A stretch of 64,000 bases of DNA from an uncultured bacterium (GCA_963726455.1 CAVSCK010000005.1:192001-256000), one strand, 5' to 3'. Numbered from the stretch's first letter, positions 1 to 14,350 are shown. Notes: generated by a model not told the origin, from the sequence alone. Numbers and translations are program-made.

Positions 1-238
1 TCAGTGAATCAGACAATATGGCCAGACTACGCTTCAGTTGAGGATATTCCTCAAAGGATGCTGGTGATAATTTGGGAAGGTCAAAGTTGGATTGAACTAC
101 TGCTTCAGACATTGGTGTCGAGTTTACGTTGTGTCTGAAGATTTTATACAAAGAGAAGAAAGTCCAACCGATAGACACAATCAGAACGACTGAAAGAAGG
201 ACATCCAAGACTCTGCGAAGTCCAACTGGCAATTCCAT
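1..238 (-). CDS. Membrane-anchored hypothetical protein, first cargo gene of cassette L4 (partial, runs off window)
   Basis: ATG at 238 with GGAGG RBS; reads MELPVGLRRVLDVLLSVVLIVSIGWTFFSLYK... with an N-terminal TM segment, open to position 1. An in-frame upstream ATG at 286 adds MAVARTGPFQFMSGGS. Confidence 0.65.
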   Translation of the reverse strand, partial: MELPVGLRRVLDVLLSVVLIVSIGWTFFSLYKIFRHNVNSTPMSEAVVQSNFDLPKLSPASFEEYPQLKRSLAILSDSL

Positions 239-380
239 ACTGCCTCCACTCATGAACTGGAAAGGCCCAGTTCTTGCCACAGCCATTTTGCATGCCGCCT
301 GCCACTGACAGGTTCTGTCAGTACCAAGTCAGATAACCTGGAAACATCGGCAGTAGAGTTCTGCCACTGCCAGAGTGTTA

Positions 381-396
381 TGCAAGCAGTGTGCCG
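381..396 (-). promoter_or_regulatory. sigma54 -24/-12 promoter (cassette L4)
   Basis: Minus strand CGGCAC-ACTGC-TTGCA matches TGGCAC-N5-TTGCW. Confidence 0.8.
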
Positions 397-484
397 GATC
401 AGAGTTTGAACAGTCAAAATCTGCTAAGTAAAGATATGTAAAGAAGATAACGAATCATTGTGAGAGTGTCCGCCTGCGGAAAAA

Positions 485-627
485 TTCGCGAATTATTCGC
501 GAATTCGCGAAAAGTTCGCGAAACATTACGAGGATTTGCGAGTCGATATTATAAGGTGCTGTCTTTCAATCAATTAGTCATTCGCAGTTTTCGCGAACTC
601 TTTACGAGGATTTGCGAGTCGATGTTC
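485..627. promoter_or_regulatory. Putative enhancer (UAS): tandem TTCGCGAA palindromes, two copies of the 26-bp box, IHF-like site
   Basis: TTCGCGAA at 485, 496, 504, 515 and about 590; TTACGAGGATTTGCGAGTCGAT at 526 and 602; TTTCAA-TCAA-TTA near 564; 90-230 bp upstream of the sigma54 promoter. Confidence 0.65.
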
Positions 628-660
628 CAGCCGACGGGATGTTACTCCCGTCGGCAGGAA
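625..660 (-). terminator. Conserved 3' stem-loop after dockerin gene (cassette L3 end)
   Basis: TTCCAGCCGACGGGA-tgttac-TCCCGTCGGCAGGAA; repeated at 1852 and 4932; no clear U-tract. Confidence 0.5.
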
Positions 661-674
661 TATATGCGATGCAG

Positions 675-953
675 TTATTGGCAAATGCCGCAGTGTGGTT
701 GCGCACCGCCGGCAAAGGCATATTGAACTATGTAGGCGACGTCGGATATGTCCCTTTGTGCATCGACCAAGATGGTACTAGGTGGAAAAATGTGAAGCAC
801 TCGGAAGTCCAAGCGTTCCATTAGAATCACCTTCGTGGTAAGTTCGTCGATCGATTCCGTACGAAATTCGAGGTAGTTCATCCGGGTGAAGGCGCCACAT
901 GTCGCTGTAGCAAAGAGAAAGCACGCGACAACGGCCAAAAATCTCCAATTCAT
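675..953 (-). pseudogene. Internally deleted paralog of the dockerin-tailed metalloprotease (signal peptide + short N-terminus + last half of dockerin)
   Basis: MNWRFLAVVAC signal; NYLEFRTESIDE...RVLHIFPPS resembles GYIELNVGSFSE...RPIHVFPPS of 1902..3980; joined to the identical tail DISDVAYIVQYAFAGGAQPHCGICQ. Confidence 0.75.
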
Positions 954-993
954 TTTGTCCTTCCCCTTGGGGAGGCGCGGGCATTCCTTTGCT

Positions 994-1377
994 CTACGGG
1001 TTGTCACGAACGAGCTGGAAATCAACACCCAGCATGGTGCCCGAAGTCGCTCCAAGCGTAGTGCTCTTTGTCTGGTAACCGCTCTTTCCGGCGTATACCT
1101 GCCGATTTATCCTGCCAAAGCTAACCCAGGAATATCTTCCGCTGCTGTCCGCGTACACTCGATTGAAATGAATCGTATCCGAGGCAGATTCACTGAACCA
1201 ACCACCGACCAGGGGGGTGCCTCCGAGACTATCCGTGATTGTGCCCGAAACATTGGTTCCACCATGATCGCCCTCGCTGCATGACTCAATTGTCAACAGA
1301 GACAGCGTCGCAGAAACCAACAGGATGACGAGAATGCCTGCGCCTGTTCCAATGCTTAAAAGGTGTTCCGTTTTCAT
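994..1377 (-). CDS. Exported/lipoprotein with carboxypeptidase-regulatory-like (prealbumin-like) domain
   Basis: ATG 1377 after GAGGGAGG; hydrophobic leader then VSGTITDS...YADSSGRY...AGKSGYQTK; paralog of 4002..4361. Confidence 0.7.
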   Translation of the reverse strand: MKTEHLLSIGTGAGILVILLVSATLSLLTIESCSEGDHGGTNVSGTITDSLGGTPLVGGWFSESASDTIHFNRVYADSSGRYSWVSFGRINRQVYAGKSGYQTKSTTLGATSGTMLGVDFQLVRDNP

Positions 1378-1509
1378 TGTTAACCTCCCTCTCAGAGTGT
1401 GAGACTTATGATCCTTCATCGCGCGGGGGCAAGGAGCGACCCTTGCGTTACGTTCTGCTTTTGGGCCCCTCCGCGATCACTGACGTTTGAATCCCTGATT
1501 TGTGCAACG

Positions 1510-1581
1510 TCAACGATCCCTGGCGCACAACGCCGGAGGGGCTCGTTGTATTCCGAATAAGTTTGTGAACAAGTCACTCAT
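1510..1581 (-). CDS. Leader peptide MSDLFTNLFGIQRAPPALCARDR (RAPP motif)
   Basis: ATG preceded by GAGGGGAAGG RBS; 23 codons plus TGA; homologs at 8101 and 4625. Confidence 0.6.
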   Translation of the reverse strand: MSDLFTNLFGIQRAPPALCARDR

Positions 1582-1684
1582 TTTGCCTTCCCCTCGTCAC
1601 TGACAGGATCTGACAGTGAACGCTGTTCGAGCGCTACCCTGGAAAAATTGGCTTTGGCGTTCAGCCACCATCAGCAGGATGTAG

Positions 1685-1700
1685 TGCAACAAGTGTGCCG
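1685..1700 (-). promoter_or_regulatory. sigma54 -24/-12 promoter (cassette L3)
   Basis: CGGCAC-ACTTG-TTGCA on minus strand. Confidence 0.8.
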
Positions 1701-1851
1701 AGTGGGAGTTTGAACTGTCAGATTTTGCTAAGTGCGAGTTTGCAAAGAGGCCCACCAGCGCATAGCTCCTCCGCTGTTCCAGACTCCAAGATATGCAAGT
1801 CGTGGAGTCGTCGTAACACTTTTTTACTGGAAAGCGTGCGGAGAGTCAACG

Positions 1852-1887
1852 TTCCTGCCGACGGGATGTTACTCCCGTCGGCAGGAA
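1852..1887 (-). terminator. Conserved 3' stem-loop (cassette L2 end)
   Basis: Perfect 15-bp stem TTCCTGCCGACGGGA/TCCCGTCGGCAGGAA just downstream of the stop at 1902. Confidence 0.55.
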
Positions 1888-1901
1888 TATATGCTAAGCA
1901 G

Positions 1902-3980
1902 TTACTGGCAAATGCCACAATGTGGCTGCGCACCGCCAGCAAAGGCATATTGAACTATGTAGGCGACGTCGGAAATATCAACCGTGCAGTCGCCATTGGC
2001 GTCGCCTAGCCCAGTTGGTATCTGACAATCGCCCGGTTCCGGCCCCCCGGCGAAGATGTACTGGACAAGATAGACGGCGTCGGAAATATCAACTGAACCG
2101 CTGCCGTCGGCATCCCCGCAATAGGTGCACTGATAGTTGAAAGTGTAATTGATCGTCTGGGACTTGCCGCCATCAGGTCGCCAGGCATAAAACCGAGCCG
2201 TGTAAGTTTGATCCTGCGGCAGGAACATCATCGGCAAGGACTGCGGATAGTTCGATGCGTACAGCTTGTCCCAGATCGGTCGAGCAACGAGGTTATTTTG
2301 AGAATCGTATATGAAGCAGCGCACGTACGCCCAACTCTCAGTGAGCTTCCAATTTAGGAAGCCGTTGGAGTAGCTGATGTCAGTGAACACTGGGGATATC
2401 GATGGATCGGAGGAATTCAACCTGATCGTAAACGGCGAGCCATTGTTGATAGTTACATAATAGATCTGACCTGTGACGCAGGTCTGGTCGTCGTAATTGT
2501 GACCGTCCCAAATCGCGAAACTTTGGGTCGGGCTCACTCGGAACATATTGTCATCGGTAACAGATATCAGATTGACGAAATCCATGTCCAGCGTGTAGAT
2601 ACGCACCAGGTCGCCAGGATTCACATTTTGAATCGACTGCCAGCCGCCGTTGTTGGGATCGATAGGATCGCAAACGCCGTCGCCGTCAGAATCTCGCCAG
2701 CCAAGGTGTGCCAACGTGCTCGGGCACGCCCCCGAATAGTCCGACGTCTTCATAACACAGTACAAACATGGCTCACAGCAGTGTTGGCAATTAGCGTTAG
2801 GAACTTGAAGATAGCCGAACCTGTCCTGGCAAGAGGAATTGCCGCTGCAGTCACCCCCTTGGCGTTCATATTCGTCTGGTGCACGAAACAGGTGCGAGAT
2901 CTCGTGAGACAGTCGTTCGTGCAACCGAACCGCGCTCGCGTCAGTCATGTATCCCGATACCATCAGGGGGCCCATATAGTCCCTGTGTTCGGTGCCCGAC
3001 ATGACACAGAAGCCAGAGGCCCCGGCAGGGAAACCGTCCAGAAAGTAACGGGGCGACGGTTGGTTGACGTTTCTGACAACGTACGCAATTATGCCCCAGT
3101 TGGCTTGCAAGTCCTTCCTTAAGGAATTGACCATGCCAAAGGCTCCGTCCCACTTATCAGCGTAGCCAAAATTCTCCTGAATCTGGCTTAACCAACCGAA
3201 GCAGTAGGACGCCAAGGGGTAACAAAGACTCAGAGGAGTCTGATTGTTAGGGTAGAGATAGGCATCGCAGGGTTCATTAATCATTATGGGCACTCCGTCT
3301 TGGATGTTGAACGAATGGATTCCCGCTGCCCGGCTTTCTCTATAGATCCAGCACAGGCGAGCGTTGTTTTCGGTCGCCAACTCCCACAGGAAGTGGCAAG
3401 CTTCCACAGTCTCGACCAGAACACTGTCTAGCTCATAACTTGTCCAGTCTTCATCATGACTTTCACTCTCCGGAGTGATGAGCCATACTGCCACCTTTCC
3501 CATCAGATAATTCGCTGTGAACATGTTGGCGGGAGAGGGCACGGGAAAACTTGCGACTGGCACCGGCAGAAGTAGCGAATCCGCGAGAGTCGGTGGAGAA
3601 CCTTCATCACGAAAATTAGACGATTTCGACAACGAAGGTTCATTACTGTCTCTGATACAAAGAAAACTTTCGTACGCACCGCGATTCGATGCCCTTTGGG
3701 TCATTTGCTTGCCGCCAACGAACACAGATATTTTGTCGAACTGCGACACTGCTGTTCGAGGATCAACGCTGAGAATCTCGACAATCGCAGCTCCAGCTGC
3801 TTCGGCCGAGGGTGGGAACACATGAATCGGTCGCAAACCCCCAATTTCGAGCTGCTCAAGAACGGAATCCATTTCGGAAAAGCTCCCCACATTTAATTCT
3901 ATATAGCCTAAGTTGCTGCCAATTGCGCAGGCCGCAATGAAACAGATGGACGCTGCCATGACTGCCATTGATCGCAACAT
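1902..3980 (-). CDS. Secreted zinc metalloprotease (HExxH...D metzincin-like) with FlgD-like Ig domain and C-terminal dockerin
   Basis: Signal peptide; RLSHEISHLFRAPDEY and CVM Met-turn; AIWDGHNYDDQ...GQIYY; CGDADGSGSVDISDAVYL / GDANGDCTVDISDVAY dockerin repeats. Confidence 0.85.
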   Translation of the reverse strand: MLRSMAVMAASICFIAACAIGSNLGYIELNVGSFSEMDSVLEQLEIGGLRPIHVFPPSAEAAGAAIVEILSVDPRTAVSQFDKISVFVGGKQMTQRASNRGAYESFLCIRDSNEPSLSKSSNFRDEGSPPTLADSLLLPVPVASFPVPSPANMFTANYLMGKVAVWLITPESESHDEDWTSYELDSVLVETVEACHFLWELATENNARLCWIYRESRAAGIHSFNIQDGVPIMINEPCDAYLYPNNQTPLSLCYPLASYCFGWLSQIQENFGYADKWDGAFGMVNSLRKDLQANWGIIAYVVRNVNQPSPRYFLDGFPAGASGFCVMSGTEHRDYMGPLMVSGYMTDASAVRLHERLSHEISHLFRAPDEYERQGGDCSGNSSCQDRFGYLQVPNANCQHCCEPCLYCVMKTSDYSGACPSTLAHLGWRDSDGDGVCDPIDPNNGGWQSIQNVNPGDLVRIYTLDMDFVNLISVTDDNMFRVSPTQSFAIWDGHNYDDQTCVTGQIYYVTINNGSPFTIRLNSSDPSISPVFTDISYSNGFLNWKLTESWAYVRCFIYDSQNNLVARPIWDKLYASNYPQSLPMMFLPQDQTYTARFYAWRPDGGKSQTINYTFNYQCTYCGDADGSGSVDISDAVYLVQYIFAGGPEPGDCQIPTGLGDANGDCTVDISDVAYIVQYAFAGGAQPHCGICQ

Positions 3981-4001
3981 GCCTCCTTTCGACTTCGCGC
4001 A

Positions 4002-4361
4002 TCATTCAACACGACACAAATAGAAATAGACGCGTGCATCGGCCGTGAGATCTCGGAAATACTCCCGCTTGGAGCGGTACCCGGTGGCCGATGCCCATAG
4101 ATAACGGTTGCGTCCAGGTGTCGTGTACAGATGGAAAGAACCCGAAGTGTTAGTGTATACGGGACTGAAATTTGTGTCCGGTTCACTCTCGTTTCCCCAC
4201 CGAACACAGGCATTTGACATAGGAGTGTCCGTCGCACTGTCTGTCACCACTCCGCTGACGAGTACACTCGGATCGCCAAGGTTCCTACTGTGGCAACCTA
4301 CGGCCAAGACAATGACGGCAAGCGCAAACGCGCTCAACGCAACGATCCTTGATACTTTCAC
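4002..4361 (-). CDS. Lipoprotein with carboxypeptidase-regulatory-like domain
   Basis: GTG at 4361 after GGAAGGAG; lipobox LAVGC; VSGVVTDSATDTP...TNTSGSF...ASATGYRS. Confidence 0.75.
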   Translation of the reverse strand: MKVSRIVALSAFALAVIVLAVGCHSRNLGDPSVLVSGVVTDSATDTPMSNACVRWGNESEPDTNFSPVYTNTSGSFHLYTTPGRNRYLWASATGYRSKREYFRDLTADARVYFYLCRVE

Positions 4362-4624
4362 GACTTTCTCCTTCCAAAAACGTTTCCAACGCACTGTCTT
4401 ATCTTCATCGAGACTTTCCCGGTTTCGACACTTGAGCAGGCATGGGTCCGAGGATGTTAATCCGTAGCGGTTGACTCGGAACCCCGACCCAACTATCCTG
4501 CCCCACTCATCTGGATCCACTATCCCGACGGATACTGGCCCAATGGAAACTAAGTCTCGCCATTGTTACTGACGTTCAATAACTCACTTTGTGGAGTGTC
4601 AGCAACATTTAATTGACACGGTCC

Positions 4625-4675
4625 TCACGGCGGAGCTTTGTTAATTCTGAAAGGAACGGTTATATGTTCAGTCAT
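4625..4675 (-). CDS. Leader peptide MTEHITVPFRINKAPP (KAPP-stop)
   Basis: Same RBS/ATG context as the 1581 and 8172 starts; DNA diverges after the ATG but the peptide keeps T6, F9, I11 and [RK]APP. Confidence 0.6.
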   Translation of the reverse strand: MTEHITVPFRINKAPP

Positions 4676-4930
4676 TTTGCCTTCCCCCCGTCACTGACAG
4701 GATCTGACAGTGGACGGTGTTCGTGCGCTACCCTGGAAAGATTGGCTTTGGCGTTCAGCCACCATCAGCAGGATGTAGTGCAACAAGTGTGCCGAGTCGG
4801 AGTTTGAACTGTCAGATTTTGCTAAGTGCGAGCTTGCAAAGATGTTAGCCAAGCATCGACATAATCGTCGTCATACCAATTTCTCGCGAAAAGTTCGCGA
4901 AACCTTACGAGGATTTGTGAGTCGATGTTC
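4672..4930 (-). repeat. UAS + promoter repeat, cassette L2 copy
   Basis: Near-identical to 8169..8445 (fewer TTCGCGAA units); identity stops at the leader-peptide ATG. Confidence 0.95.
4779..4794 (-). promoter_or_regulatory. sigma54 -24/-12 promoter (cassette L2)
   Basis: CGGCAC-ACTTG-TTGCA on minus strand. Confidence 0.8.
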
Positions 4931-4931
4931 C

Positions 4932-4959
4932 TGCCGACGGGATGTTAGTCCCGCCGGCA
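4932..4959 (-). terminator. Conserved 3' stem-loop (cassette L1 end)
   Basis: TGCCGACGGGA-tgttag-TCCCGCCGGCA, a variant of the 625/1852 hairpins. Confidence 0.5.
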
Positions 4960-4977
4960 TTAACATTGAGAATACGG

Positions 4978-6819
4978 CTACAAACAGCTCCCACAGTGTG
5001 GTCGTGCGCCACCGGCAAAGATGTACTGTATCAAGAAGACAGCGTCGGAGATGTCGACAGCGCAATCGCCGTTGGCATCGGCAAGGCCGGCCTGTACCTG
5101 GCAATCGCGTGGTGCGGCGCCACCAGCGAAAATGTATTGGATGATATACACAGCGTCCGCGATGTCGACGGTGAGATCGTCGTTGGCATCGCCACAGCTC
5201 TTGCAGGCGATCATCACCGCACGCTGCTCGTTGACACGTCCCCAGCCGACCTGGTCATTGACGCGGCGGTATTCATTATCGGGCACGCCGTAGTGCTGCC
5301 GTTCGCACGACTTGCGAAGGATGTCGTACATGACCTCCGCCGAATCCTGATAGTGCCACCCCATCAGCCAAGGATCACGCACCAGCAGTCGGGCAGCGAT
5401 CCCCGCCACCACCGGTGCCGCGAAGGAAGTGCCGGTCAGGTGGCAAGCGTAATTTTCGTTTTCGTCACATGTATTACCCGACGTGCTAGGATTCAAACCA
5501 CCATAGCCCATCAAGTCGAGCGACCACAGATCCTTGCCCGGCGCCAGCAGATCAAGTGTCGCGCCTGTTGCCGAGCCGTCAACGCGATCATCCTTGTTGT
5601 CGCTCATGCCGACCCCAAGTACGTACCGTGAACTCGCTGGATACTCCACCCAACCTTTGTTCCCCGCAGCGACAATTGTGATCTTGCCGTTGCGATACAT
5701 CTCCCCCAACCTCCGCTCAATTTCGGAACTGTAGTTGATGCTCCAGGTGATGCACACGATTTGTGCCGCACCCGGCTGATAGCACACCCAGTCGAGGGCG
5801 CGAAGCCACACCGAGTTACTCGTCATACCGTACCAGTCCACGATCTTCACCGGCATTATTCTGGGCCGCGACTCCGTCCCCGCAAGTCCCACGGCGTTGT
5901 TTGTGTAGGCTTCCAGGATTCCTAAAACTGCCGTGCCGTGCCAGCAAATAGGATTCGAGTAGGTGCATTCGGTCGACGGATCATCGTCCGGCGGTCCGCC
6001 TGCCGACCAGCCCGCAGCATCGTATGGATGCCACCAGCAGTTGGACCGGAAGTCCTCGTGTGTCATCTGGTAGCCGGCATCCAAGACGGCTACGATAGGA
6101 GGCGTTAAGTTCGGATCGGAATACGGTTGCGCCGCTTCCCAGTCGATATCGGCCCCGGGCGTGCCGCCATTCTGACCGGTGTTTTTGAATTGCCACTGCT
6201 CTCCAAAGTAGGGATCGTTGGTGTTGGCATGCGCAGGATAGGTCAGATTCGGCTCCGCAACAATGCACAGACCGGTGTTGTTGAGGTTGCGTGCCAACTG
6301 CGTTATGTCGTAGGAATATCTGCCATTGTAGCTCACAATATGTGTCACCGTCAGACTCTCTTGGAAAGTCTCGGTGACCGTAAGACTGTAGATATGTTCA
6401 GTGGAGACAATCTGTTCCGGCGTCGTGGTCGGTTTCCAAGTAATAATCAAAGAGTTGTCCAACTTGCCACGGTCATCATAGACGGTCCTGACCACGGGGT
6501 TGACCATCAAGATGGTATCATTCATTCTTAGCGAACTCATGACGTCCTGAAGATCATAGCCCGTCTCGATGCCGAATACGAAGAACTGATTCGGGGCCTC
6601 TTCAATGTCGAAGGTGTCACTGAGAAAGGGCTGGGCAATGGCAAACTCAGCCGCGTTCGGCCCGGGGATGTTTGGATCGAAGCGAATCTCCACGAGATTA
6701 GTATAAGTCTCAAAATAGAGCGGACTGCCGTCCAAATCGTAATACCAATAGTTGCCCTGAGCATGCAGAGGAGCCGCCAACAGGGCCAGCAGGAACATGA
6801 CTGCAATTATCTTTTTCAT
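4978..6819 (-). CDS. Secreted S8 subtilase with C-terminal dockerin
   Basis: MKKIIAVMFLLALLAAPLHA signal at 6819; catalytic motifs VAVLDAG, HGTAVLG, GTSFAAPVVAG; CGDANDDLTVDIADAVY / DANGDCAVDISDAVF dockerin. Confidence 0.92.
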   Translation of the reverse strand: MKKIIAVMFLLALLAAPLHAQGNYWYYDLDGSPLYFETYTNLVEIRFDPNIPGPNAAEFAIAQPFLSDTFDIEEAPNQFFVFGIETGYDLQDVMSSLRMNDTILMVNPVVRTVYDDRGKLDNSLIITWKPTTTPEQIVSTEHIYSLTVTETFQESLTVTHIVSYNGRYSYDITQLARNLNNTGLCIVAEPNLTYPAHANTNDPYFGEQWQFKNTGQNGGTPGADIDWEAAQPYSDPNLTPPIVAVLDAGYQMTHEDFRSNCWWHPYDAAGWSAGGPPDDDPSTECTYSNPICWHGTAVLGILEAYTNNAVGLAGTESRPRIMPVKIVDWYGMTSNSVWLRALDWVCYQPGAAQIVCITWSINYSSEIERRLGEMYRNGKITIVAAGNKGWVEYPASSRYVLGVGMSDNKDDRVDGSATGATLDLLAPGKDLWSLDLMGYGGLNPSTSGNTCDENENYACHLTGTSFAAPVVAGIAARLLVRDPWLMGWHYQDSAEVMYDILRKSCERQHYGVPDNEYRRVNDQVGWGRVNEQRAVMIACKSCGDANDDLTVDIADAVYIIQYIFAGGAAPRDCQVQAGLADANGDCAVDISDAVFLIQYIFAGGARPHCGSCL

Positions 6820-6889
6820 TTTGTTAGACTCCGATTCTAGATTTTCGGACCGATGCGCATCTGGTAAGGCAGACGCTGTAGGTCCGGGG

Positions 6890-7978
6890 TTATGACTTTT
6901 CGTTACTCTTCTTGAGATTGGTGTCAACCACCAGCACCGATCCGGGCATGCGACCAGCCATTCGGCCCGTGGCGACATAAGCTTTCTCACCTGTGGGTGA
7001 AAAAATGATGTCGGAACCGGCGAGCGGAACGAGTGGATTAGGACCGTAGCCGAAGAGCGAGATACCCTGGCGATAGGCGCCGCTGGCGGCATCGAAAACA
7101 TAGATCGTTCCCGAGTCCCAGTCCCAGCCGGGTATGCCAGGATCCGTCATCCAGACTTCGCTGCCGTCAGGCGATACAGCGATCCCGCCGAATCGGCCCA
7201 GCGTCGGATAAGCCCAGATTACGCTTCGGCTGTTGAGATCGTAGCCCATTACGAAGCTCCGTCCGAGATCGTTGAACCACCGAAGGCACTTGAAGTAGAG
7301 CCGGTTTCGAGTGAAATCAATGCACGACCCAATCGGCTGGATAGTGTCTCCGGGCACGAGGTGCATGGGCAGCAACTCCAGCTTGCGGTCAAGGTAATCG
7401 TAGCTGTAGTAATCGAAACCGAGACTACGGTCACCGTTGCCATAGAGTAAGTGGCGTGCTTCGTCCACCCACAGGCCGTAGAACCCGACGATCGTGTCGA
7501 TTCGCTCCACCGCAAAGGATGGCAGATTCATAATGTACAACTCCCCCTGCATACTATTGCCGAGCGCCAGTCCTCGTTGGTTGTCGATGACCGGCAAGAA
7601 ATAGCGGGGCAGTTCAGTCACAAACTGGAGTGTTTGCGCATCGTAGACACGAGTTCGGGCATTGGCAAAGTCGACTGGGTTATAATCGACGATCAGATAG
7701 CGACCATCACCTGTCACTTCCAACCCGGCTGCGTCCCCGAATGACTTGGCTTCCGTAATGCTGTCCACCACAGAGTCACTTTCCATGTCGATCTTGTAGA
7801 CGTTGGACAGAGCTATGTTGAACTCCGAATAGTACAACCACCCCTTGTAATGCTGCACGACTGGATCGGTCGGACAGGTGGGGCAGTCTTTGGAGCAGCC
7901 GGCGGCCATCAGGGCGACCAACAGCAACAGCGCCGTCAGTGAACCGCGGACGCTTCCGAGCAATAACACTTTCTTCAT
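6890..7978 (-). CDS. YVTN/YncE-type beta-propeller lipoprotein (3' end probably frameshifted; likely true end KVITPDLQRLPYQMRIGPKI, stop at 6837)
   Basis: Lipobox MAAGC; GIAVSPDGSEVWMTD, GTIYVFDA, IIFSPTGEKAYVA, GSVLVVDT propeller blades. Confidence 0.8.
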   Translation of the reverse strand: MKKVLLLGSVRGSLTALLLLVALMAAGCSKDCPTCPTDPVVQHYKGWLYYSEFNIALSNVYKIDMESDSVVDSITEAKSFGDAAGLEVTGDGRYLIVDYNPVDFANARTRVYDAQTLQFVTELPRYFLPVIDNQRGLALGNSMQGELYIMNLPSFAVERIDTIVGFYGLWVDEARHLLYGNGDRSLGFDYYSYDYLDRKLELLPMHLVPGDTIQPIGSCIDFTRNRLYFKCLRWFNDLGRSFVMGYDLNSRSVIWAYPTLGRFGGIAVSPDGSEVWMTDPGIPGWDWDSGTIYVFDAASGAYRQGISLFGYGPNPLVPLAGSDIIFSPTGEKAYVATGRMAGRMPGSVLVVDTNLKKSNEKS

Positions 7979-8100
7979 GACATTCTCCCTTCTTAGCTGT
8001 AACTTACCTGCGAATTGTCAGCAGAGCGCAAACTTGCGTTACGTTCTGCTTTTGGGCCCCTCCGCGATCACTGACGTTTGAATCCCTGATTTGTGCAACG

Positions 8101-8172
8101 TCAACGATCCCTGGCGGACAACGCCGGAGGGGCTCGTTGTATTCCGAATAAGTTTGTGAACAAGTCCTTCAT
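8101..8172 (-). CDS. Leader peptide MKDLFTNLFGIQRAPPALSARDR (RAPP motif)
   Basis: ATG after GGGGGAAGG RBS; RAPP codons overlap a GC-rich hairpin. Confidence 0.6.
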   Translation of the reverse strand: MKDLFTNLFGIQRAPPALSARDR

Positions 8173-8274
8173 TTTGCCTTCCCCCGTCACTGACAGGATC
8201 TGACAGTGGACGGTGTTCGTGCGCTACCCTGGAAAGATTGGCTTTGGCGTTCAGCCACCATCAGCAGGATGTAG

Positions 8275-8290
8275 TGCAACAAGTGTGCCG
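8275..8290 (-). promoter_or_regulatory. sigma54 -24/-12 promoter (cassette L1)
   Basis: CGGCAC-ACTTG-TTGCA on minus strand. Confidence 0.8.
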
Positions 8291-8560
8291 ACTGAGAGTT
8301 TGAACTCTCAGATTTTGCTAAGTGCGAGTTTGCAAAGATGTTAGCCAAGCATCGACATAATCGTCGTCATACTAATTTCTCGCGAAATATTCGCGAATTC
8401 GCGAAAAGTTCGCGAAACCTTACGAGGATTTGCGGCTCCATGTTCTTCTGACCGAGAGGCGGATTCACCGGTTTCGGTGAGGTGATTTCCAGGGGCGTCT
8501 TTGACGATATAAAATGCAGAGACGAAACTAAACAATTTGGAGCGTTATACGTTTTTTCTA

Positions 8561-8588
8561 TTGACAGCACGCTTCACAAGTTTATATT
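8561..8588 (+). promoter_or_regulatory. sigma70-type promoter of the peptide/activator operon
   Basis: TTGACA-N16-TATATT with AT-rich upstream tract, 50 bp before ATG 8639. Confidence 0.65.
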
Positions 8589-8638
8589 CGCATTTAGGAT
8601 AGCAAAAAAAGAGCAAGACTCAAACCCAGAGTTTAACT

Positions 8639-8992
8639 ATGATCAAAAGGTTGATGTTATTGGCGACCTTATCGGTCCTCCTCGGGGTGTTGGTACTTTC
8701 CGTGCCGCTCGTGGCCGCTGACAGTGCGAGACCGCTGAAGGGACAGACGACGGTGGTCAAGGCACAACCGGTCACAGCGGGACCCTCGGTTCAAGCAGTT
8801 CCAGCAGCAGGCGCATCATTCCTGCAATTCCTGAGATTCAATATTGCGCGCTGGCTGGGTATTCCCGGTCCGGTAGTCGCGCCAAAGCCGCCGGTCAAGG
8901 ATGGACCGCAGAAGAGCAGTGGCAACTGGATAATTGACCCAAGATATATTAGTGCACCAATGAGGGATAACGGGGGACATGAGCCAACTTAG
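8639..8992 (+). CDS. Small secreted protein (117 aa), candidate signalling pro-peptide
   Basis: Sec signal ending VAA/DS; Pro/Ala/Val-rich linker, amphipathic FLQFLRFNIARWLG, polar tail; 18 bp before the activator gene. Confidence 0.7.
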   Translation: MIKRLMLLATLSVLLGVLVLSVPLVAADSARPLKGQTTVVKAQPVTAGPSVQAVPAAGASFLQFLRFNIARWLGIPGPVVAPKPPVKDGPQKSSGNWIIDPRYISAPMRDNGGHEPT

Positions 8993-9010
8993 TGATAAGG
9001 TATCGCTCTA

Positions 9011-11241
9011 ATGATGATAAGTATTGAGCGTACATTTGCTCAAGTCCACGCTTTGATTGAAAGGGCGGACTATGCCGAGGCGGAGAAGCTTCTTGCACCG
9101 GTGAGAAGTGAGTGCAAAACTCGGAGGGACGCCACGTCGCTTTCCGAAATGTACTTCTGTTACGGAAGATGTTACTATTACACTGGCAGGTATACCAAGG
9201 CCCTAGCTCGTCTGAGAGCGGCTGTCCGCTTATGCCAGGATTCAGCAAATCACAGACTCTTTGCGCGAGAAAAGGTGCTTCTGGGCGTGATTATGCGATC
9301 CCAGGGTAGACAACGAGATGCCGTAGAAGCATTTACAGAAGCTTTTGCTGCGCGCAAGAGGGCGAGGGACTATGACGGACTCTTTGTCCCCCTTGTCCAT
9401 CTCGCACTTTCCCACTTTTTAGGCGGAGATTTGCATCAAGCGCGGTCCGTCATTGGCGAGGCGCTTTCATACACTCTGAAATACAACGGGGTCTCGGATC
9501 TGCGCCTCTGCCTTCTCAATCGTTTTCTTTTCGAGATGTTCTCTGGCGAGCTTGCCAAGTGCCAGGAGACGCTTGCCGAAGTACGTCTACAGGAGCTCGG
9601 CGTCGTGGATTCGGCGCATGTCAGCTTACACTCCGGCCAATTATTCCTCTTCAGAATGCAGAGTGCCGAAGCGAGCGCTCTGATCAAAGAGGCGATGAAT
9701 ACTTACGCTCGAAACCAGATTCGCAGAGACTACGTCGTCTGCCTTGAGTTCCTCGGCATGAACGAGTACTTCGCGGGCAACTACAAGAAAGCGAAAGCAT
9801 ACTACCAACAGGTTCTCGAGATGCCGGAGCCGACGGCCTCGGCGGTGGCGCAGACACTCAGAATGCTGGCGGATGTCTACATAGCGGAAGGCAATTGGCA
9901 GAAAGCGACCGAGACGGCCGCCAAAGCTGAACAGGCGATTACGAAGATCAACGAACGCATCGAACTGGGCGCTTTGTGGCGGGCACTGGCGCAGATTGCC
10001 GAACATGACGGTGATGCGGCTGCGGCGCGCGAGTCCTGATACAGAAGTCGCTGGAACTGTTGCAGCAGTGCGGTGCGCGCTACGAGTTGGCGCTCAGCCA
10101 TGTGGCCGCCGGAATGTCAGCCGCGTTCACAATGGAGGAACGCCGCAATCATCTGGAACTGGCCCGGACGCTGTTCACCGAAATGGGCGTGCCGAAACGC
10201 GTGGCGCAGGTCGAGAAAGCAATTGCCGGGCTGAATCGTGCGGATAAGAAAACGGCTCGCGACGGTAAAGCCAGGATTGAGGCGCCGACAATTATCACCC
10301 GCAGCCCCATGATGCTGTCAATCCTGGAGCAGATCGCGATGGCGCGTGAGTCCGATCTCACGGTGTTAATCACGGGTGAAACGGGAACCGGCAAGGACCT
10401 GATCGCGGAGTATATTCATTACACTTCCCGGCGCGCTGACAAACCGTTTCGTAATGAGAACACTGCCGCCATCACGGAGTCGCTGCTGGAGACGGAATTG
10501 TTTGGCCATTGTAAAGGCGCCTATTCCGGAGCCGACTATGACAAGCCGGGACTGATCGAGTCGAGCGACGGCGGGACGTTCTGCTTCAACGAGATCGCCG
10601 AAATTCCACCGGCGACGCAGGCGAAGCTTTTGCAGGTGCTGGAAAGCAAAAGTGTGCGCCGCCTGGGCGAGGTCGACAAGCGACCGATTGACGTACGCTT
10701 TGTGGCGATGACCAACCAGAATCTGCCGGCTCTGATTGCCCGCCATGAGTTCCGCGAAGACTTATATCACCGGCTGCAGCAGTTGACCTTCCAGTTGCCA
10801 CCGTTACGCGATCGCCGGGAAGATATCACGCCGCTGTTCGAGCATTTCCTGTTATTGGCTGGATTCAGAAAGGAAGGATTGCCGAGCGCGCAACATCCGC
10901 TGGTGGTGGATCGGCTGCGTGAACTGGACTGGCCGGGCAACGTGCGCGAATTGCGCAATTTCTCCGGACGGGTGGCGGCATTGGCTCCCGACGGCGACAC
11001 CAATAAGATCCTGCGCCTCATTGAGGATCAGGCCAGAGAACACGCGAAGAAAGCTGCATCCGACGACAACAACGGCAATGGCCGCCAGACTCCGTACCGC
11101 GAATCTGACGCCGAAGCGCTGGATACGGAAGAAATGGCGGAATGTCTGGAGCGTTGCCGGGGCAATCTCTCGGCCACCGCCCGCGAACTCAACATTCCCG
11201 AGTCCACCCTGCGCTATCGCCTCCGCAGGCAGGGCAAGTAG
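9011..11241 (+). CDS. TPR-domain sigma54-dependent activator (TPR-AAA+-Fis HTH), split by a one-base frameshift at about 10035
   Basis: 9011..10039 is TPR-like helical repeats; 10060..11241 has GETGTGKD, ETELFGHCKGAYSGA, FREDLYHRL, WPGNVREL and HTH LSATARELNIPESTLRYRL; the downstream frame is open across the junction (LIQKSLELLQQCG). Confidence 0.88.
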
Positions 11242-11488
11242 CCCGTCGCTGAATCAGACTTAATCAAATTCCACGCACGTCATCCTTCTTCGGACAAAGA
11301 GTCGTCCGGCAAGAGTCGCTGATCGCTGTCTCGCGAACGTGGAGCCGCAAATCCTCGTAAAGAATTCGCGAATTCGCGAACGTTTCGCTAATTTTTCGCG
11401 AATCTGCGAGTCGGGGTTTGCGAACAAACTTGCACTCCCGGTTTTGTCATTCAACGAGTTAGCAAATTAGTTCCATCACATCCTGAAT

Positions 11489-11504
11489 TGGCACGCCGGT
11501 TGCA
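11489..11504 (+). promoter_or_regulatory. sigma54 -24/-12 promoter (cassette R1)
   Basis: TGGCAC-GCCGG-TTGCA, perfect consensus; IHF-like ATTCAA-CGAG-TTA at 11449; TTCGCGAA array at 11365-11402. Confidence 0.88.
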
Positions 11505-11549
11505 TTACCGTACTGCAACTGGGCACGGAGTCCATGTCAGGAGAGGAAA

Positions 11550-11633
11550 GTGGCAGGAAGAAAGATTGATACACACGCTGAGGGTACGAACCTCAAAACC
11601 ACACAACTTGCTCTTTTCAGGCGACCCCCGTGA
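11550..11633 (+). CDS. Leader peptide MAGRKIDTHAEGTNLKTTQLALFRRPP (RRPP-stop)
   Basis: GTG after AGGAGAGG RBS; the PP-stop codons form the 5' arm of hairpin 11627-11663. Confidence 0.5.
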   Translation: MAGRKIDTHAEGTNLKTTQLALFRRPP

Positions 11634-11765
11634 TGCCCCGCTATCCAAACCTGGTGTCACGGGTAGCACAAGCGACCGGCAGCCACCAAAGCTGCCGGTT
11701 GCTGGAAATCAAAGTAAGTAAAGGTTGAATTTGATGGAATTGTTTACATTCATAGGAGGCAGAAA

Positions 11766-12497
11766 ATGAAGAAGATTATCAGCGGAATCATGATCGTCGT
11801 CTGGTTGGCGACGTTGGTGGGAGGTTGTCAAAGCGGCAATCAGGTTCCGAACAAGGTAGCCGAGCCGCAAAGTTCAGCAATTGAGTCAGGCAACAGCAAG
11901 ATCATGGTTGATCCAAGTCAGGAGAAACATTCCATACTCATGGCGAATCTGGCGTTGCCCGCAGTGGCGAACTTTACCGACACGCTGGAAGCACAGGGCT
12001 ACGGGTACCGGGAAAATAATTCAGTCATCCTGATCGAAAATCACTATGATGACGAGTGGCGAGACGCCGTGCAACCGGCAAACACAGATCAAAGTCTCAA
12101 GCGCTCTCCGAACAGGAGGATCATCGGCGCCGACACTTTAGTCTGGCAAGTTTTCGAGAATGCGGCACTCGATTCGAGCAAACATACGGCGATCATAACG
12201 GGTTACCATGAAGGCCAAGTCAAGAGTGTCTTCGTCGAAGCGAATGTGACTGTCGAGAACCACTCACTCATTCGGGGTATGGTCTTAGATGGAAATGGGT
12301 CCACAATGGATGATCCCCTTGTTTTCGGCTTTTGGACCAACTGGGGTACTTGTGTCGCGGTGGCCACGGCTCGCTGCCTCGTTACTTGTGGGTTATCGGG
12401 ACCACTATACCTACATTGTCTCGCGGGGTGCGAAGGTTGGGCCATCACCTTCTGCGCTATTGGGGCATACTTAACTTGCTTGATAACTAACAGATAG
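11766..12497 (+). CDS. Lipoprotein with hydrophobic Cys-rich C-terminal tail (bacteriocin-precursor-like)
   Basis: AGGAGG RBS; lipobox VGGC; tail C-x7-C-x3-C-x9-C-x3-C-x7-C-x7-C. Confidence 0.8.
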   Translation: MKKIISGIMIVVWLATLVGGCQSGNQVPNKVAEPQSSAIESGNSKIMVDPSQEKHSILMANLALPAVANFTDTLEAQGYGYRENNSVILIENHYDDEWRDAVQPANTDQSLKRSPNRRIIGADTLVWQVFENAALDSSKHTAIITGYHEGQVKSVFVEANVTVENHSLIRGMVLDGNGSTMDDPLVFGFWTNWGTCVAVATARCLVTCGLSGPLYLHCLAGCEGWAITFCAIGAYLTCLITNR

Positions 12498-12520
12498 TAG
12501 ATGAGAAGGAATCACATCTA

Positions 12521-12772
12521 ATGAATTGGCTCGCTTCAAAGAAGAACGGCATCAGGATTTCGACTGCTGTCTTTTGTCTCACGGGTGTGCTGTTGCTCGC
12601 CGTAGCTCGGCCCTGGCTGGCCTGGGGTATAGCCGGGCTCGCAGCAGGCCTTGTCAGCTTACCTTCTGCATGCGGGGGAAAGTTCACATTTTGGAAAGTT
12701 TTGGGAATCCTGTCAGCCGAGAGTATTGGGGCGGGTCTGCTTGCCCATTTAATCTATTTGGTAACCCGTTAG
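12521..12772 (+). CDS. Small 3-TM membrane protein (immunity-like)
   Basis: 83 aa, hydrophobic, AAGGA RBS, directly after the Cys-rich lipoprotein; paralog of 16188..16445. Confidence 0.7.
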   Translation: MNWLASKKNGIRISTAVFCLTGVLLLAVARPWLAWGIAGLAAGLVSLPSACGGKFTFWKVLGILSAESIGAGLLAHLIYLVTR

Positions 12773-12908
12773 AAGCGACAACATCGGATTTGCACCGCAG
12801 GATGTGTCACAGGGTCGGAGTGACGTTACTTCGACCCTATTGATCATAAACATGGCCGTCGCCGAAGCGCGGCTCGATTACCGAACTTAGATTTTCTGCT
12901 TAAGTTCA

Positions 12909-12969
12909 GTAGGTCGAAACCCCTGGTGGAATTAAGTGTTCTCTACAACTCCCTTTCCGGGGTTTCGAC
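12909..12969. repeat. REP-like inverted repeat
   Basis: GTAG-GTCGAAACCCC...GGGGTTTCGAC; similar at 24488..24548 and a half copy at 31859..31869. Confidence 0.5.
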
Positions 12970-13196
12970 ACTTTCGTAACTACACTCCTTACGATTATCC
13001 ATCCCACAACGAAAACTCGTAGTCTAAGCACAGTACCTCACCGAACGTGGACTCGCAAATCCTCGTAAAGAATTCGCGAATTCGCGAACGTTTCGCTAAT
13101 TTTTCGCGAATCTGCGAGTCGGGGTTTGCGAACAAACTTGCACTCCCGGTTTTGTCATTCAACGAGTTAGCAAATTAGTTCCATCACATCCTGAAT

Positions 13197-13212
13197 TGGC
13201 ACGCCGGTTGCA
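13197..13212 (+). promoter_or_regulatory. sigma54 -24/-12 promoter (cassette R2)
   Basis: TGGCAC-GCCGG-TTGCA. Confidence 0.88.
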
Positions 13213-13257
13213 TTACCGTACTGCAACTGGGCACGGAGTCCATGTCAGGAGAGGAAA

Positions 13258-13341
13258 GTGGCAGGAAGAAAGATTGATACACACGCTGAGGGTACGAACC
13301 TCAAAACCACACAACTTGCTCTTTTCAGGCGACCCCCGTGA
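13258..13341 (+). CDS. Leader peptide ending FRRPP-stop (copy 2)
   Basis: Identical to 11550..11633. Confidence 0.5.
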   Translation: MAGRKIDTHAEGTNLKTTQLALFRRPP

Positions 13342-13473
13342 TGCCCCGCTATCCAAACCTGGTGTCACGGGTAGCACAAGCGACCGGCAGCCACCAAAGC
13401 TGCCGGTCGCGGGAAATCAAAGTAAGTAAAGGTTGAATTTGATGGAATTGTTTACATTCATAGGAGGCAGAAA

Positions 13474-14350
13474 ATGAAGAAGATTATCAGTGGAATCATG
13501 ATCGTCGTCTGGTTGGCGACGTTGGTGGGAGGTTGCAACCAAACCAGTAGGCCCAGTTCGTCGCAAGAGACTGCCGTTGCTCAATTTGAACTCGAATCTG
13601 CGAAAGTTCGGGTCACTCATTTCGCTTACGATTCCCAACAAGGAAGCTTCCAAGTCAATATGCAGTTAGCTTGGTCTGGTGGCGAAGTTACGAAGAACGT
13701 CGCTGCCTTTACAGCGCAGCGGTTGAATGGTGCGTGGAACGGTGCCAGTGTGAGTCTTCGCGACGAGCGTGGGAAGCTTCTTTGGGAATACTTTATCGAT
13801 TGGGACATCAATGATACCACTTGGATAAGAATTCAGGAAAGAACCGACAGAGACGCGCTCTCGATCAAGGAGATTCAGACCCCAATTCGACCACCGAGGA
13901 ATACGTCTTCAATGGAGTGCGGAAGAATTTCACTTGTCCGAAGTATTTGTCGGAAAGTCTGTCAAACGCCAAGCCCGCGACGTTGTCCGAGGCCGATCAG
14001 AGTTTATTGGAGGAGCTGAAGAGTCAGTTTCTTTCGTTCTATAATCCGGACAACAGCCTGTCGTCCAATCGTTACGGCCTTTTGCTGAACGAGCTGCTTA
14101 GCAATGACGGCTTTAAGACCTGGATGAGGAGTTCTGTCGTAGGTGCCGGCACTGCTTCGCACCAGGAAGGCCTGGCGTTATTCACGGACAAGTCAGAGAA
14201 GACAAAGGACTGGAATTGCACTCTGGCCGACGCCTGTTCTACTTTTAGGTGCTCGGGAACAGGCTTAGCAATCCATTGTGTGTTCCCTGCATCGGGTTGA
14301 GTATTGCATGCCTCATTGCAGATATCGTAGGCCTAATTCAGGACAAATAA
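13474..14350 (+). CDS. Second lipoprotein with Cys-rich hydrophobic tail; two apparent frameshifts (about 13870 and 14255)
   Basis: Same signal peptide as 11766 but unrelated body; frames join to ...WNCTLADACSTFRC...SNPLCVPCIGLSIACLIADIVGLIQDK, stop at 14350. Confidence 0.65.

Follow-up and report, generated by a model that had tools for sequence, protein, structure and literature searches.

Leader uORFs at a sigma-54 locus

The window analysed here is a stretch of 64,000 nucleotides from an uncultured bacterium (positions 192001-256000 of contig C5 in genome G000, which comprises 3.64 Mb in 5 contigs), and our subject is a locus in it whose mRNA leaders carry very short upstream open reading frames (uORFs) with a basic-x-Pro-Pro motif at or near their ends. 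Six matches to the -24/-12 (sigma-54 type) promoter pattern occur in the window, all of them within the first 14 kb, against 0.40 expected, and this count was attained by 0 of 100 shuffles. Four lie on the minus strand (L0, 381-395; L1, 1685-1699; L2, 4779-4793; L3, 8275-8289) and two on the plus strand (R1, 11490-11504; R2, 13198-13212). Between the L and the R cassettes sit two plus-strand genes, one for a TPR protein (9011-10039, recognized by Pfam TPR families) and, just downstream of it, one for a sigma-54 enhancer-binding protein (EBP) with AAA+ and Fis-type helix-turn-helix domains (10060-11241; Pfam Sigma54_activat, 2.8e-57, and HTH_8, 7.2e-10).

By reading of open reading frames (ORFs), the main genes served are those at 994-1377 for L1 (a small secreted CarboxypepD_reg-like protein, also by Pfam), 4002-4364 for L2 and 6890-7978 for L3, all on the minus strand, and two lipoprotein genes on the plus strand at 11766-12497 for R1 and 13474-14019 for R2. 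The products behind the promoters are small secreted CarboxypepD_reg-like proteins, a dockerin-bearing subtilase and lipoproteins. Promoter and 5′ untranslated parts of the cassette copies are 78-99% identical, R1 and R2 forming a 300-nt repeat with 99% identity, and blastn confined the cassettes to this one locus in the genome, which also encodes efp, rho and rpoN.

The original prediction placed five uORFs in these leaders, each preceded by a ribosome-binding site (RBS), and all five were recovered on reading and translating the DNA, with a purine-rich, Shine-Dalgarno (SD)-like stretch 5-10 nt upstream of every start. The L1 uORF (1510-1581, minus strand) has 23 codons plus a stop, with RAPP at codons 13-16 followed by 7 further codons; the L3 uORF (8101-8172, minus strand) has the same layout, and its peptide differs from that of L1 at 2 residues. 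The L2 uORF (4625-4675, minus strand) has 16 codons and ends in KAPP-stop. On the plus strand, the R1 uORF (11550-11633) starts with GTG and has 27 codons ending in RRPP-stop, and the R2 uORF (13258-13341), likewise with a GTG start, encodes an identical 27-residue peptide. Every one of the five lies downstream of a -24/-12 match, in keeping with their proposed placement under sigma-54, for which rpoN is found elsewhere in the genome. The count of five cassettes, by contrast, was one short: all five are real, but a sixth, L0 (236-286, minus strand; alignment and ORF list), has the RBS and ATG of L1-L3 followed by 16 codons that lack xPP, and its frame then runs on into the gene for a membrane protein, whose own SD-preceded ATG is codon 17 (236-238).

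Each uORF is co-oriented with its main gene, whose start lies some 120-260 nt further on with no terminator-like site between the two. No signal peptide or membrane segment is present in the uORF peptides of the window (16-27 residues), which are signal-less as proposed, and the whole chain would still be inside the exit tunnel at the predicted stall point. As a background we took small ORFs (10-70 codons) that follow an SD and do not lie within long ORFs. The pattern [RK]xPP is present in 21 of 1281 such ORFs outside the locus (1.6%) versus 7 of 17 within it, five of the seven being the uORFs in question; [RK]xPP-stop is found in 0 of the 1281 versus three inside, and R[AGSDP]PP in 1 of the 1281 versus two inside. 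The motif-bearing uORFs at this locus are not a chance occurrence, and we regard them as genuine leader ORFs that are predicted to be translated.

Leader hairpins

The xPP codons had been described as overlapping a hairpin arm, and in the consensus folds they are indeed the 5′ arm. The L1 leader folds into a hairpin (1457-1545, minus strand; -41.5 kcal/mol, z -4.3, 0 of 200 shuffles as good) whose basal helix has the Ala-Pro-Pro codons as its 5′ arm and a GGAGG-like stretch as its 3′ arm, enclosing an inner hairpin with a conserved loop. The L3 hairpin (8048-8136, minus strand; covariance model E 1.2e-15) has the same design, and that of L2 (4551-4639, minus strand; E 1.5e-13; -24.9 kcal/mol, z -2.6, 3 of 200 shuffles) is a diverged copy of it. 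The R1 leader forms two hairpins (11623-11703, plus strand; -45.1 kcal/mol, z -5.0, 0 of 200 shuffles), the first with the Pro-Pro-stop codons as its 5′ arm and the second a GC-rich stem with compensatory changes; R2 has the same pair (13331-13411, plus strand; consensus fold and R-type covariance model). Rfam returned nothing relevant for the leaders of the window, the single hit being a chance microRNA match (E 0.95).

The L-type helix shows covariation. Its cells pair in 88.7% of cases versus 36-60% with slid partners, 8 pairs show double changes, and the covariation score was attained by 0 of 500 shuffles. In the R-type leaders five double changes fall in the second hairpin and none in the one that holds Pro-Pro-stop.

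These folds bear on two claims about how the leaders are related. The DNA identity of L2 with L1 and L3 was said to end at the ATG; there is a sharp fall there, to about half of 48 positions, but homology does not end with it, as a single covariance model recovers all three hairpins. The R leader was held to be unrelated to the L leaders, whereas both types have in common a short pyrimidine-rich motif just before the basic-x-Pro-Pro codons.

Conservation in relatives

A DNA search with the L3 leader in 40 relatives matched its own genome alone (1 of 41). Homologues of the activator were found at E <= 1e-60 in 34 of the 41 genomes, and the leaders of 20 such regions were read. Covariance models for the L-type and R-type leaders were then built from the alignments and run on 21 genomes of the family, four of which represent the genus. 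Two sister species of this genus, G002 and G003, have both leader types, and the other four genera of the family gave no strong match to either model.

With the L-type model, 8 strong matches (E <= 1.5e-9) and 2 weak ones were obtained, the strong ones all from G000, G002 and G003. An SD-preceded ORF with [RK][AG]PP on the 5′ arm of the hairpin is present in all 8 strong matches: RAPP twice (G000), RGPP three times (twice in G002, once in G003) and KAPP-stop three times (once in each genome). The G002 orthologue of L1 has RGPP at identical codon positions. Two of the RGPP uORFs (one each in G002 and G003) stand behind a sigma-70-like promoter and have a wholly different N-terminus on the same hairpin. 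The KAPP-stop uORFs of G000, G002 (C113) and G003 (C120) are each exactly 16 codons long, their Lys, Ala and last Pro codons differ silently, and one stop codon is exchanged for another.

With the R-type model, these three genomes yielded 5 strong matches; 8 weak ones (E 0.004-0.07) are outside our counts. All 5 strong uORFs end in LALFRRPP-stop while their N-terminal halves differ. The last 8 residues of R1 are identical in 3 orthologues from G002 and G003, with both Arg codons varying silently, and the G000 uORF reaches this frame from another start codon than its orthologues do. The G002 and G003 peptides, 26-28 residues in total, include a 9-residue hydrophobic run.

In a neighbouring genus the leader layout is different. 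DSARDPP, or a core much like it, is found in uORFs of four leaders (G017 has two of them, G004 and G012 one each); these uORFs are preceded by an SD and come directly 3′ of a GC-rich hairpin; a leader in G019 holds a degenerate copy of this class that lacks Pro-Pro, and one in G010 has a 14-codon ORF ending in RAPP-stop. The RDPP uORFs (loci L027, L029, L018, L023 and L030) lie behind sigma-54 promoters beside genes for TPR-activator fusions. A blastn search with this class in the 21 family genomes produced no new member, the 7 matches inspected outside the locus of the query being the 2 known G017 copies and 5 unrelated sequences. The main leader RNA of the neighbouring genus is itself conserved and structured, and corresponds to none of the Rfam families sought with the leaders of the window.

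Several other candidates were set aside. A scan of genome contigs with the EBP alignment picked up generic AAA+ patterns at 80 loci of many phyla, among which L100 alone belongs to the family, and the other 79 were not used. A hairpin-loop pattern scan of metagenomes gave 2 matches, both unrelated. A second small ORF that follows the GGAGG-like 3′ arm is present in G002 and G003 and not in G000, and its peptide is not conserved.

Constraint on peptide and on RNA

Codon-level analysis of homologous leaders, which had been suggested as a check on the uORFs, came out in favour of coding: the ratio of nonsynonymous to synonymous changes (pN/pS) is lowest in the uORF frame in every class, at 0.23-0.74. 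For the KAPP-stop class (3 sequences) it is 0.42 versus 2.56 and 1.11 in the +1 and +2 frames, and for the RRPP-stop class (4 sequences, R2 being omitted since it has the same peptide as R1) 0.52 versus 1.52 and 3.08. The RDPP class (5 sequences) gives 0.23 versus 2.06 and 2.31, with all 8 third positions variable, and the pooled L-type uORFs (5 sequences, L3 being omitted as near-identical to L1) give 0.65 versus 1.26 and 1.31. L1, L3 and one G002 orthologue taken alone show a weak signal (0.74 versus 0.86 and 1.93).

Other features also point to the peptide. Although their DNA is only about 50% identical, five L-type uORFs of three genomes all have exactly 12 codons before the motif, and the basic residue is encoded by three different Arg codons and two Lys codons. 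Basic-x-Pro-Pro, in the forms RAPP, RGPP, KAPP-stop, RRPP-stop and RDPP, is the sole feature kept across otherwise unrelated uORF peptides. The retention of T6, F9 and I11 together with [RK]APP had been taken to indicate selection on the peptide, and this holds in part: motif and length are kept with mostly silent changes in two sister species. However, codons 7-11 are a pyrimidine-rich stretch conserved at the nucleotide level, and the argument from T6, F9 and I11 is weakened because this stretch also persists in the neighbouring genus, in leaders where that frame has no start codon. RNA and peptide constraints are superimposed on these leaders, and both are visible. Of the L-type matches, the 8 strong ones keep both hairpin and frame, and the two weak ones are hairpins with no short uORF.

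Comparison with known arrest peptides

We compared the uORFs with the RAPP/RGPP arrest peptides ApdA, ApdP, the RQH family and seven peptides from Streptomyces lividans (PMC10987492, PMC12992588). RAPP and RGPP are described as the most robust arrest cores and as refractory to EF-P in the systems tested, with an Ala-to-Gly change fully permissive or better and Ser, Asp and Pro partly permissive (PMC12992588). Small proteins with these cores are encoded 5′ of diverse genes, and the seven S. lividans peptides tested all arrest, one of them in the absence of a localisation signal (PMC12992588). HAPP and QAPP also occur as natural cores (PMC10987492), and earlier work quoted in the discussion of PMC10951233 indicates that a minimal RxPP motif can suffice.

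The avoidance of RAPP and RGPP in proteomes, described by Fujiwara et al. 2025 (PMC12992588), is evident in this organism as well. When 2931 long ORFs (1.08 million residues) are taken as a crude proteome, RAPP occurs once versus 11.3 expected (0.09), RGPP not at all versus 9.9, RAGP twice versus 19 (0.11), RSPP once versus 8.9 and RDPP once versus 7.5 (0.13), whereas AAPP (19 versus 16.8) and AGPP (13 versus 14.7) are not avoided. The avoidance of RAPP and RGPP suggests that these sequences impede the ribosomes of G000 too.

Several features are shared with the published peptides. R-[AG]-P-P lies near the end of an ORF that is co-oriented with the regulated gene and directly 5′ of it, the motif is conserved while the remainder diverges and is avoided in the proteome, and the downstream genes are diverse and extend beyond sec and yidC. 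The differences are that the uORFs here have 15-37 codons where closed (16-27 in the window) versus mostly about 100-200 residues in the published peptides, that they have no signal peptide, membrane segment or sensor domain, that their stall codons form the arm of a covarying hairpin, that their promoters are of the sigma-54 type beside their own activator, and that the KAPP-stop and RRPP-stop variants fall outside the permissive set that was tested. An accepted arrest core (RAPP, RGPP or one of the variants RAGP, RAPG, HAPP and QAPP) is present in L1 and L3 (RAPP) and in three relatives (RGPP), and is lacking in L2 (KAPP), R1 and R2 (RRPP). L1, L3 and the RGPP orthologues show every sequence-level feature of RAPP/RGPP arrest except the usual localisation signal, and L2, R1 and R2 are better described as working like arrest peptides, if they stall at all.

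A further related system is CruR of Bordetella pertussis (Bp2923, DUF2946; PMC9426467), in which a near-C-terminal RAPP holds the ribosome on the leader so that transcription reads into the next gene, and in which RAPP is required to read through a Rho-dependent stop (PMC9426467). As in CruR, the leaders here have no intrinsic terminator, and rho is present in G000 too. However, CruR is exported and 145 residues long, and its copper sensor, a CxxC, stands 45 residues ahead of RAPP (PMC9426467); the uORFs have no CxxC or Cys pair, and the 12 residues before their motif leave no room for one. SecM, whose motif is quoted as F-x4-WI-x4-GIRAGP (PMC12992588), offers a further likeness, as G-I-Q-R-A-P-P of L1 and L3 is near to its G-I-R-A-G-P and the Arg is three before the A-site Pro. 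One extra residue stands between Ile and Arg, secretion signal and secA context are missing from the uORFs, and this short resemblance may be due to chance.

Other modes of leader regulation may be compared as well. With regard to leader ORFs that respond to EF-P or proline, Pro-Pro lies on a stem arm here and efp is present in the genome. Attenuators of the trp type differ from the present leaders in that no intrinsic terminator lies between leader ORF and gene here. In the attenuation of erm genes, a ribosome stalled on a short leader ORF acts through hairpins between the leader and the main RBS. The leaders described here likewise have a short ORF, with a predicted stall, and hairpins before the main RBS, but no drug is involved and an RBS-freeing switch appears in 3 of 12 modelled leaders.

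The literature searched held nothing on signal-less RAPP uORFs of <30 codons or on such uORFs in sigma-54 leaders, although the survey supplements (PMC12992588, PMC10987492) may hold examples. Since the survey in PMC12992588 took annotated proteins, ORFs as short as these are likely to be missing from it.

Proposed mechanism

We propose that the secreted-protein operons driven by sigma-54 at this locus probably carry a second, translational control layer. Since the C-rich 5′ arm of a conserved hairpin is made up of the Pro-Pro codons, a ribosome that is held there would keep the hairpin open. In the RAPP and RGPP copies, this would most likely be an arrest of the published RAPP type, in which no peptide bond forms between the first Pro, in the P site, and the Pro-tRNA in the A site; for the KAPP-stop and RRPP-stop copies, slow passage through Pro-Pro or slow termination is likelier. 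Parked with its P site on the first Pro codon, the ribosome would occupy all of the 5′ arm and release the GGAGG-like 3′ arm, and in this way remodel or protect the leader so as to set the level at which the sigma-54/EBP-driven transcript is expressed. Possible routes of output are the unmasking of the main RBS, which is hinted at in the KAPP-stop class, the blocking of Rho as in CruR, and stabilisation of the mRNA. The explanation as a whole, a ribosome that holds the leader hairpin open at Pro-Pro and thereby tunes sigma-54/EBP-driven expression, is the one that we favour, with moderate confidence.

The form of this layer differs from that first suggested, which was translational control or attenuation. 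Attenuation finds no support, because none of the leaders has an intrinsic terminator: their hairpins have no trailing U run, and of 12 terminator-like sites in 1-14200, not one falls within a leader in the correct orientation. Nor did modelling of 12 leaders yield a consistent RNA switch. A narrow ribosome mask (-12 to +16 nt) did not make the main SD consistently more or less accessible. The main RBS is strongly complementary to uORF codons 7-11 in one leader (G002 C273; -23.2 kcal/mol, z -4.6); in two others the match is weak (z -1.8 and -1.7), and nine show none.

It is also possible to take the proposal further, although we do so tentatively and consider it rather doubtful. The leaders would then be part of a kit used by the family, made up of minimal R-x-P-P stall cassettes (14-28 codons) that have no sensor, whose stall codons are the arm of a covarying helix and which stand behind the sigma-54 promoters, and at least one sigma-70-like promoter, of secreted-protein operons. 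The conserved KAPP-stop and RRPP-stop members would represent a new subclass that stalls at termination and can do without the Arg-Ala context held to be irreplaceable. Regulation would act on the ribosome itself and not on a sensor domain; EF-P, an ABCF factor or a small molecule within the exit tunnel are examples of what might exert it.

Alternative explanations

A number of observations weigh against the arrest mechanism that we favour. A caveat attached to the original prediction, that KAPP and RRPP may not arrest, gains weight: neither is depleted in the proteome (KAPP, 6 versus 8.9, or 0.68; RRPP, 8 versus 7.6, or 1.06), all 19 substitutions of the Arg in the R-A-P core of ApcA, ApdA and ApdP, Lys included, raised reporter activity, and Ala-to-Arg is absent from the permissive substitutions reported (PMC12992588). 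Three of the five uORFs in the window thus have no known arrest core. In addition, most RAPP-like motifs in ordinary proteins do not stall, so that upstream residues matter (PMC10987492), and only 12 residues precede the motif in the L-type uORFs. Under a wider ribosome mask the main SD or AUG opened in only 3 of the 12 modelled leaders (G000 L2, G002 C113 and G002 C273). In two compensated pairs of the L-type helix, one partner is the third base of a motif codon (Ala/Gly or first Pro); with these changes compensated in the opposite arm, part of the conservation is at the RNA level. One of the four genomes of the genus (G001, 84% complete) has neither leader type, the two weak L-type hairpin copies (G002 C59b and 1757-1850 of the window) have no short uORF, and in some leaders of the neighbouring genus, which possess the pyrimidine motif and a hairpin of C-rich and G-rich arms, the xPP frame is without an ATG, GTG or TTG.

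Some of these points would be accommodated by a generic polyproline pause that depends on EF-P or prolyl-tRNA, or by slow termination after Pro-Pro, either of which would report translation capacity or proline supply and involve no RAPP-type arrest. The proline-codon leader ORF of the Salmonella mgtCBR operon is a model for sensing of proline supply. Such a pause would suit the KAPP-stop uORF and the two RRPP-stop uORFs, which end directly in a stop and whose motifs are not avoided, efp is present, and the Pro codons lie on a hairpin arm as in leaders of that kind. A plain pause, however, needs neither the Arg or Lys that always stands two before Pro-Pro nor the Ala, Gly, Arg or Asp between them in unrelated uORFs; moreover, the strong avoidance of RAPP, RGPP and RDPP suggests something worse than ordinary Pro-Pro, and RAPP/RGPP arrest was refractory to EF-P in the systems tested (PMC12992588). 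We consider this explanation unlikely, if the most serious of those opposed to arrest. Less probable still is an element that works purely as RNA, a hairpin of C-rich and GGAGG-like arms of which the ORF and its Pro-Pro codons are by-products. The covarying L-type helix, the compensated third positions within the motif, the hairpins and neighbouring-genus leaders that lack a uORF or a start in frame, and an apical loop that lies outside the class-B uORFs and is conserved in sequence would all be expected of it. It leaves unexplained why an SD and start are kept at a fixed 12-codon distance in 5 diverged leaders, why substitutions are frame-specific in four classes, including the RDPP class with its 8 variable third positions, why the Arg/Lys codon alters both of its first two bases and stays basic, and why the stop right after Pro-Pro survives a stop-to-stop change. 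Nor does it account for a motif on uORFs with unrelated N-termini, or for [RK]xPP-stop being found in none of the 1281 background ORFs.

The uORFs might instead be decaying 5′ ends of an ancestral gene, copied along with the promoter cassette inside the locus. The start of L0, the same as that of L1-L3, does open a real gene, and the 78-99% identity among the copies indicates recent copying or gene conversion; nevertheless, frame, length and motif are preserved by the orthologues of two further species, the uORF frame has the lowest pN/pS, and the part after the motif varies freely or is absent, contrary to what decay would predict, which makes this origin very improbable. An even smaller chance attaches to small peptides that are made from the uORFs and act in trans. 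Coding-type conservation would be natural for them, but it is limited to the last 4-10 residues, the N-termini differ wholly between classes, the sequence after the motif is unconstrained, and the location is always a leader directly 5′ of a gene.

Other features of the locus and genome

Several features lie outside the uORFs themselves. The remnant L-type hairpin at 1757-1850 (minus strand; weak covariance match, E 0.021, and alignment) is 5′ of the L1 promoter, where other cassettes have runs of an 8-base, palindrome-rich repeat. These runs (486-550, 4865-4929, 8380-8444, 11334-11400 and 13042-13110) lie 100-200 nt 5′ of the promoters of L0, L2, L3, R1 and R2 and are probably candidate binding sites for the adjoining activator. 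A 23-nt element on the minus strand (1596-1619, 4690-4713 and 8186-8208), made of two heptamer copies one helical turn apart, is placed between promoter and uORF RBS in L1-L3, with a diverged copy in L0. It occurs exactly at two unrelated intergenic sites (contig C4 of G000, near 687378 and 1464912) and in reversed orientation 5′ of the KAPP-stop leaders of G002 and G003, and it looks like a candidate protein-binding site on DNA and not a feature of the RNA.

The TPR protein and the sigma-54 activator (9011-11241) are read in two frames here, and in relatives the match falls within a single open frame of some 730-757 residues; a split or frameshift may have affected the gene in G000. A 137-nt repeat (616-752, 1843-1979 and 4919-5055) comprises the 3′ ends of dockerin-bearing genes and a perfect hairpin just downstream, which suggests that the operons share C-terminal modules and terminators. 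Elsewhere in G000, a small ORF on the plus strand of contig C3 (16960-17100; locus L193, 661-801) has RAPP 11 residues from its end and lies about 60 nt 5′ of a gene for a large secreted protein, and it may be a further arrest leader.

Implications

Published RAPP/RGPP arrest peptides come from annotated proteins, which mostly have 100-200 residues and a secretion signal or membrane segment by which the stall is released. What appears to be new here is a set of much shorter, sensor-less leaders of the RAPP type, fused with a hairpin arm and situated in sigma-54 leaders. Because they are far shorter and have nothing by which the chain could be pulled, a stall, if it occurs, would have to be constitutive or relieved inside the ribosome. 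If the uORFs do stall, they would provide a natural case in which to ask how small a RAPP arrest sequence can be and in what other way it is released, and the conserved KAPP-stop and RRPP-stop variants form a natural test of whether Arg and Ala are indispensable. Surveys of annotated genes are likely to miss uORFs of this size class. If the proposal is true, sigma-54 regulons, which are usually viewed as purely transcriptional, can hold a translational layer.

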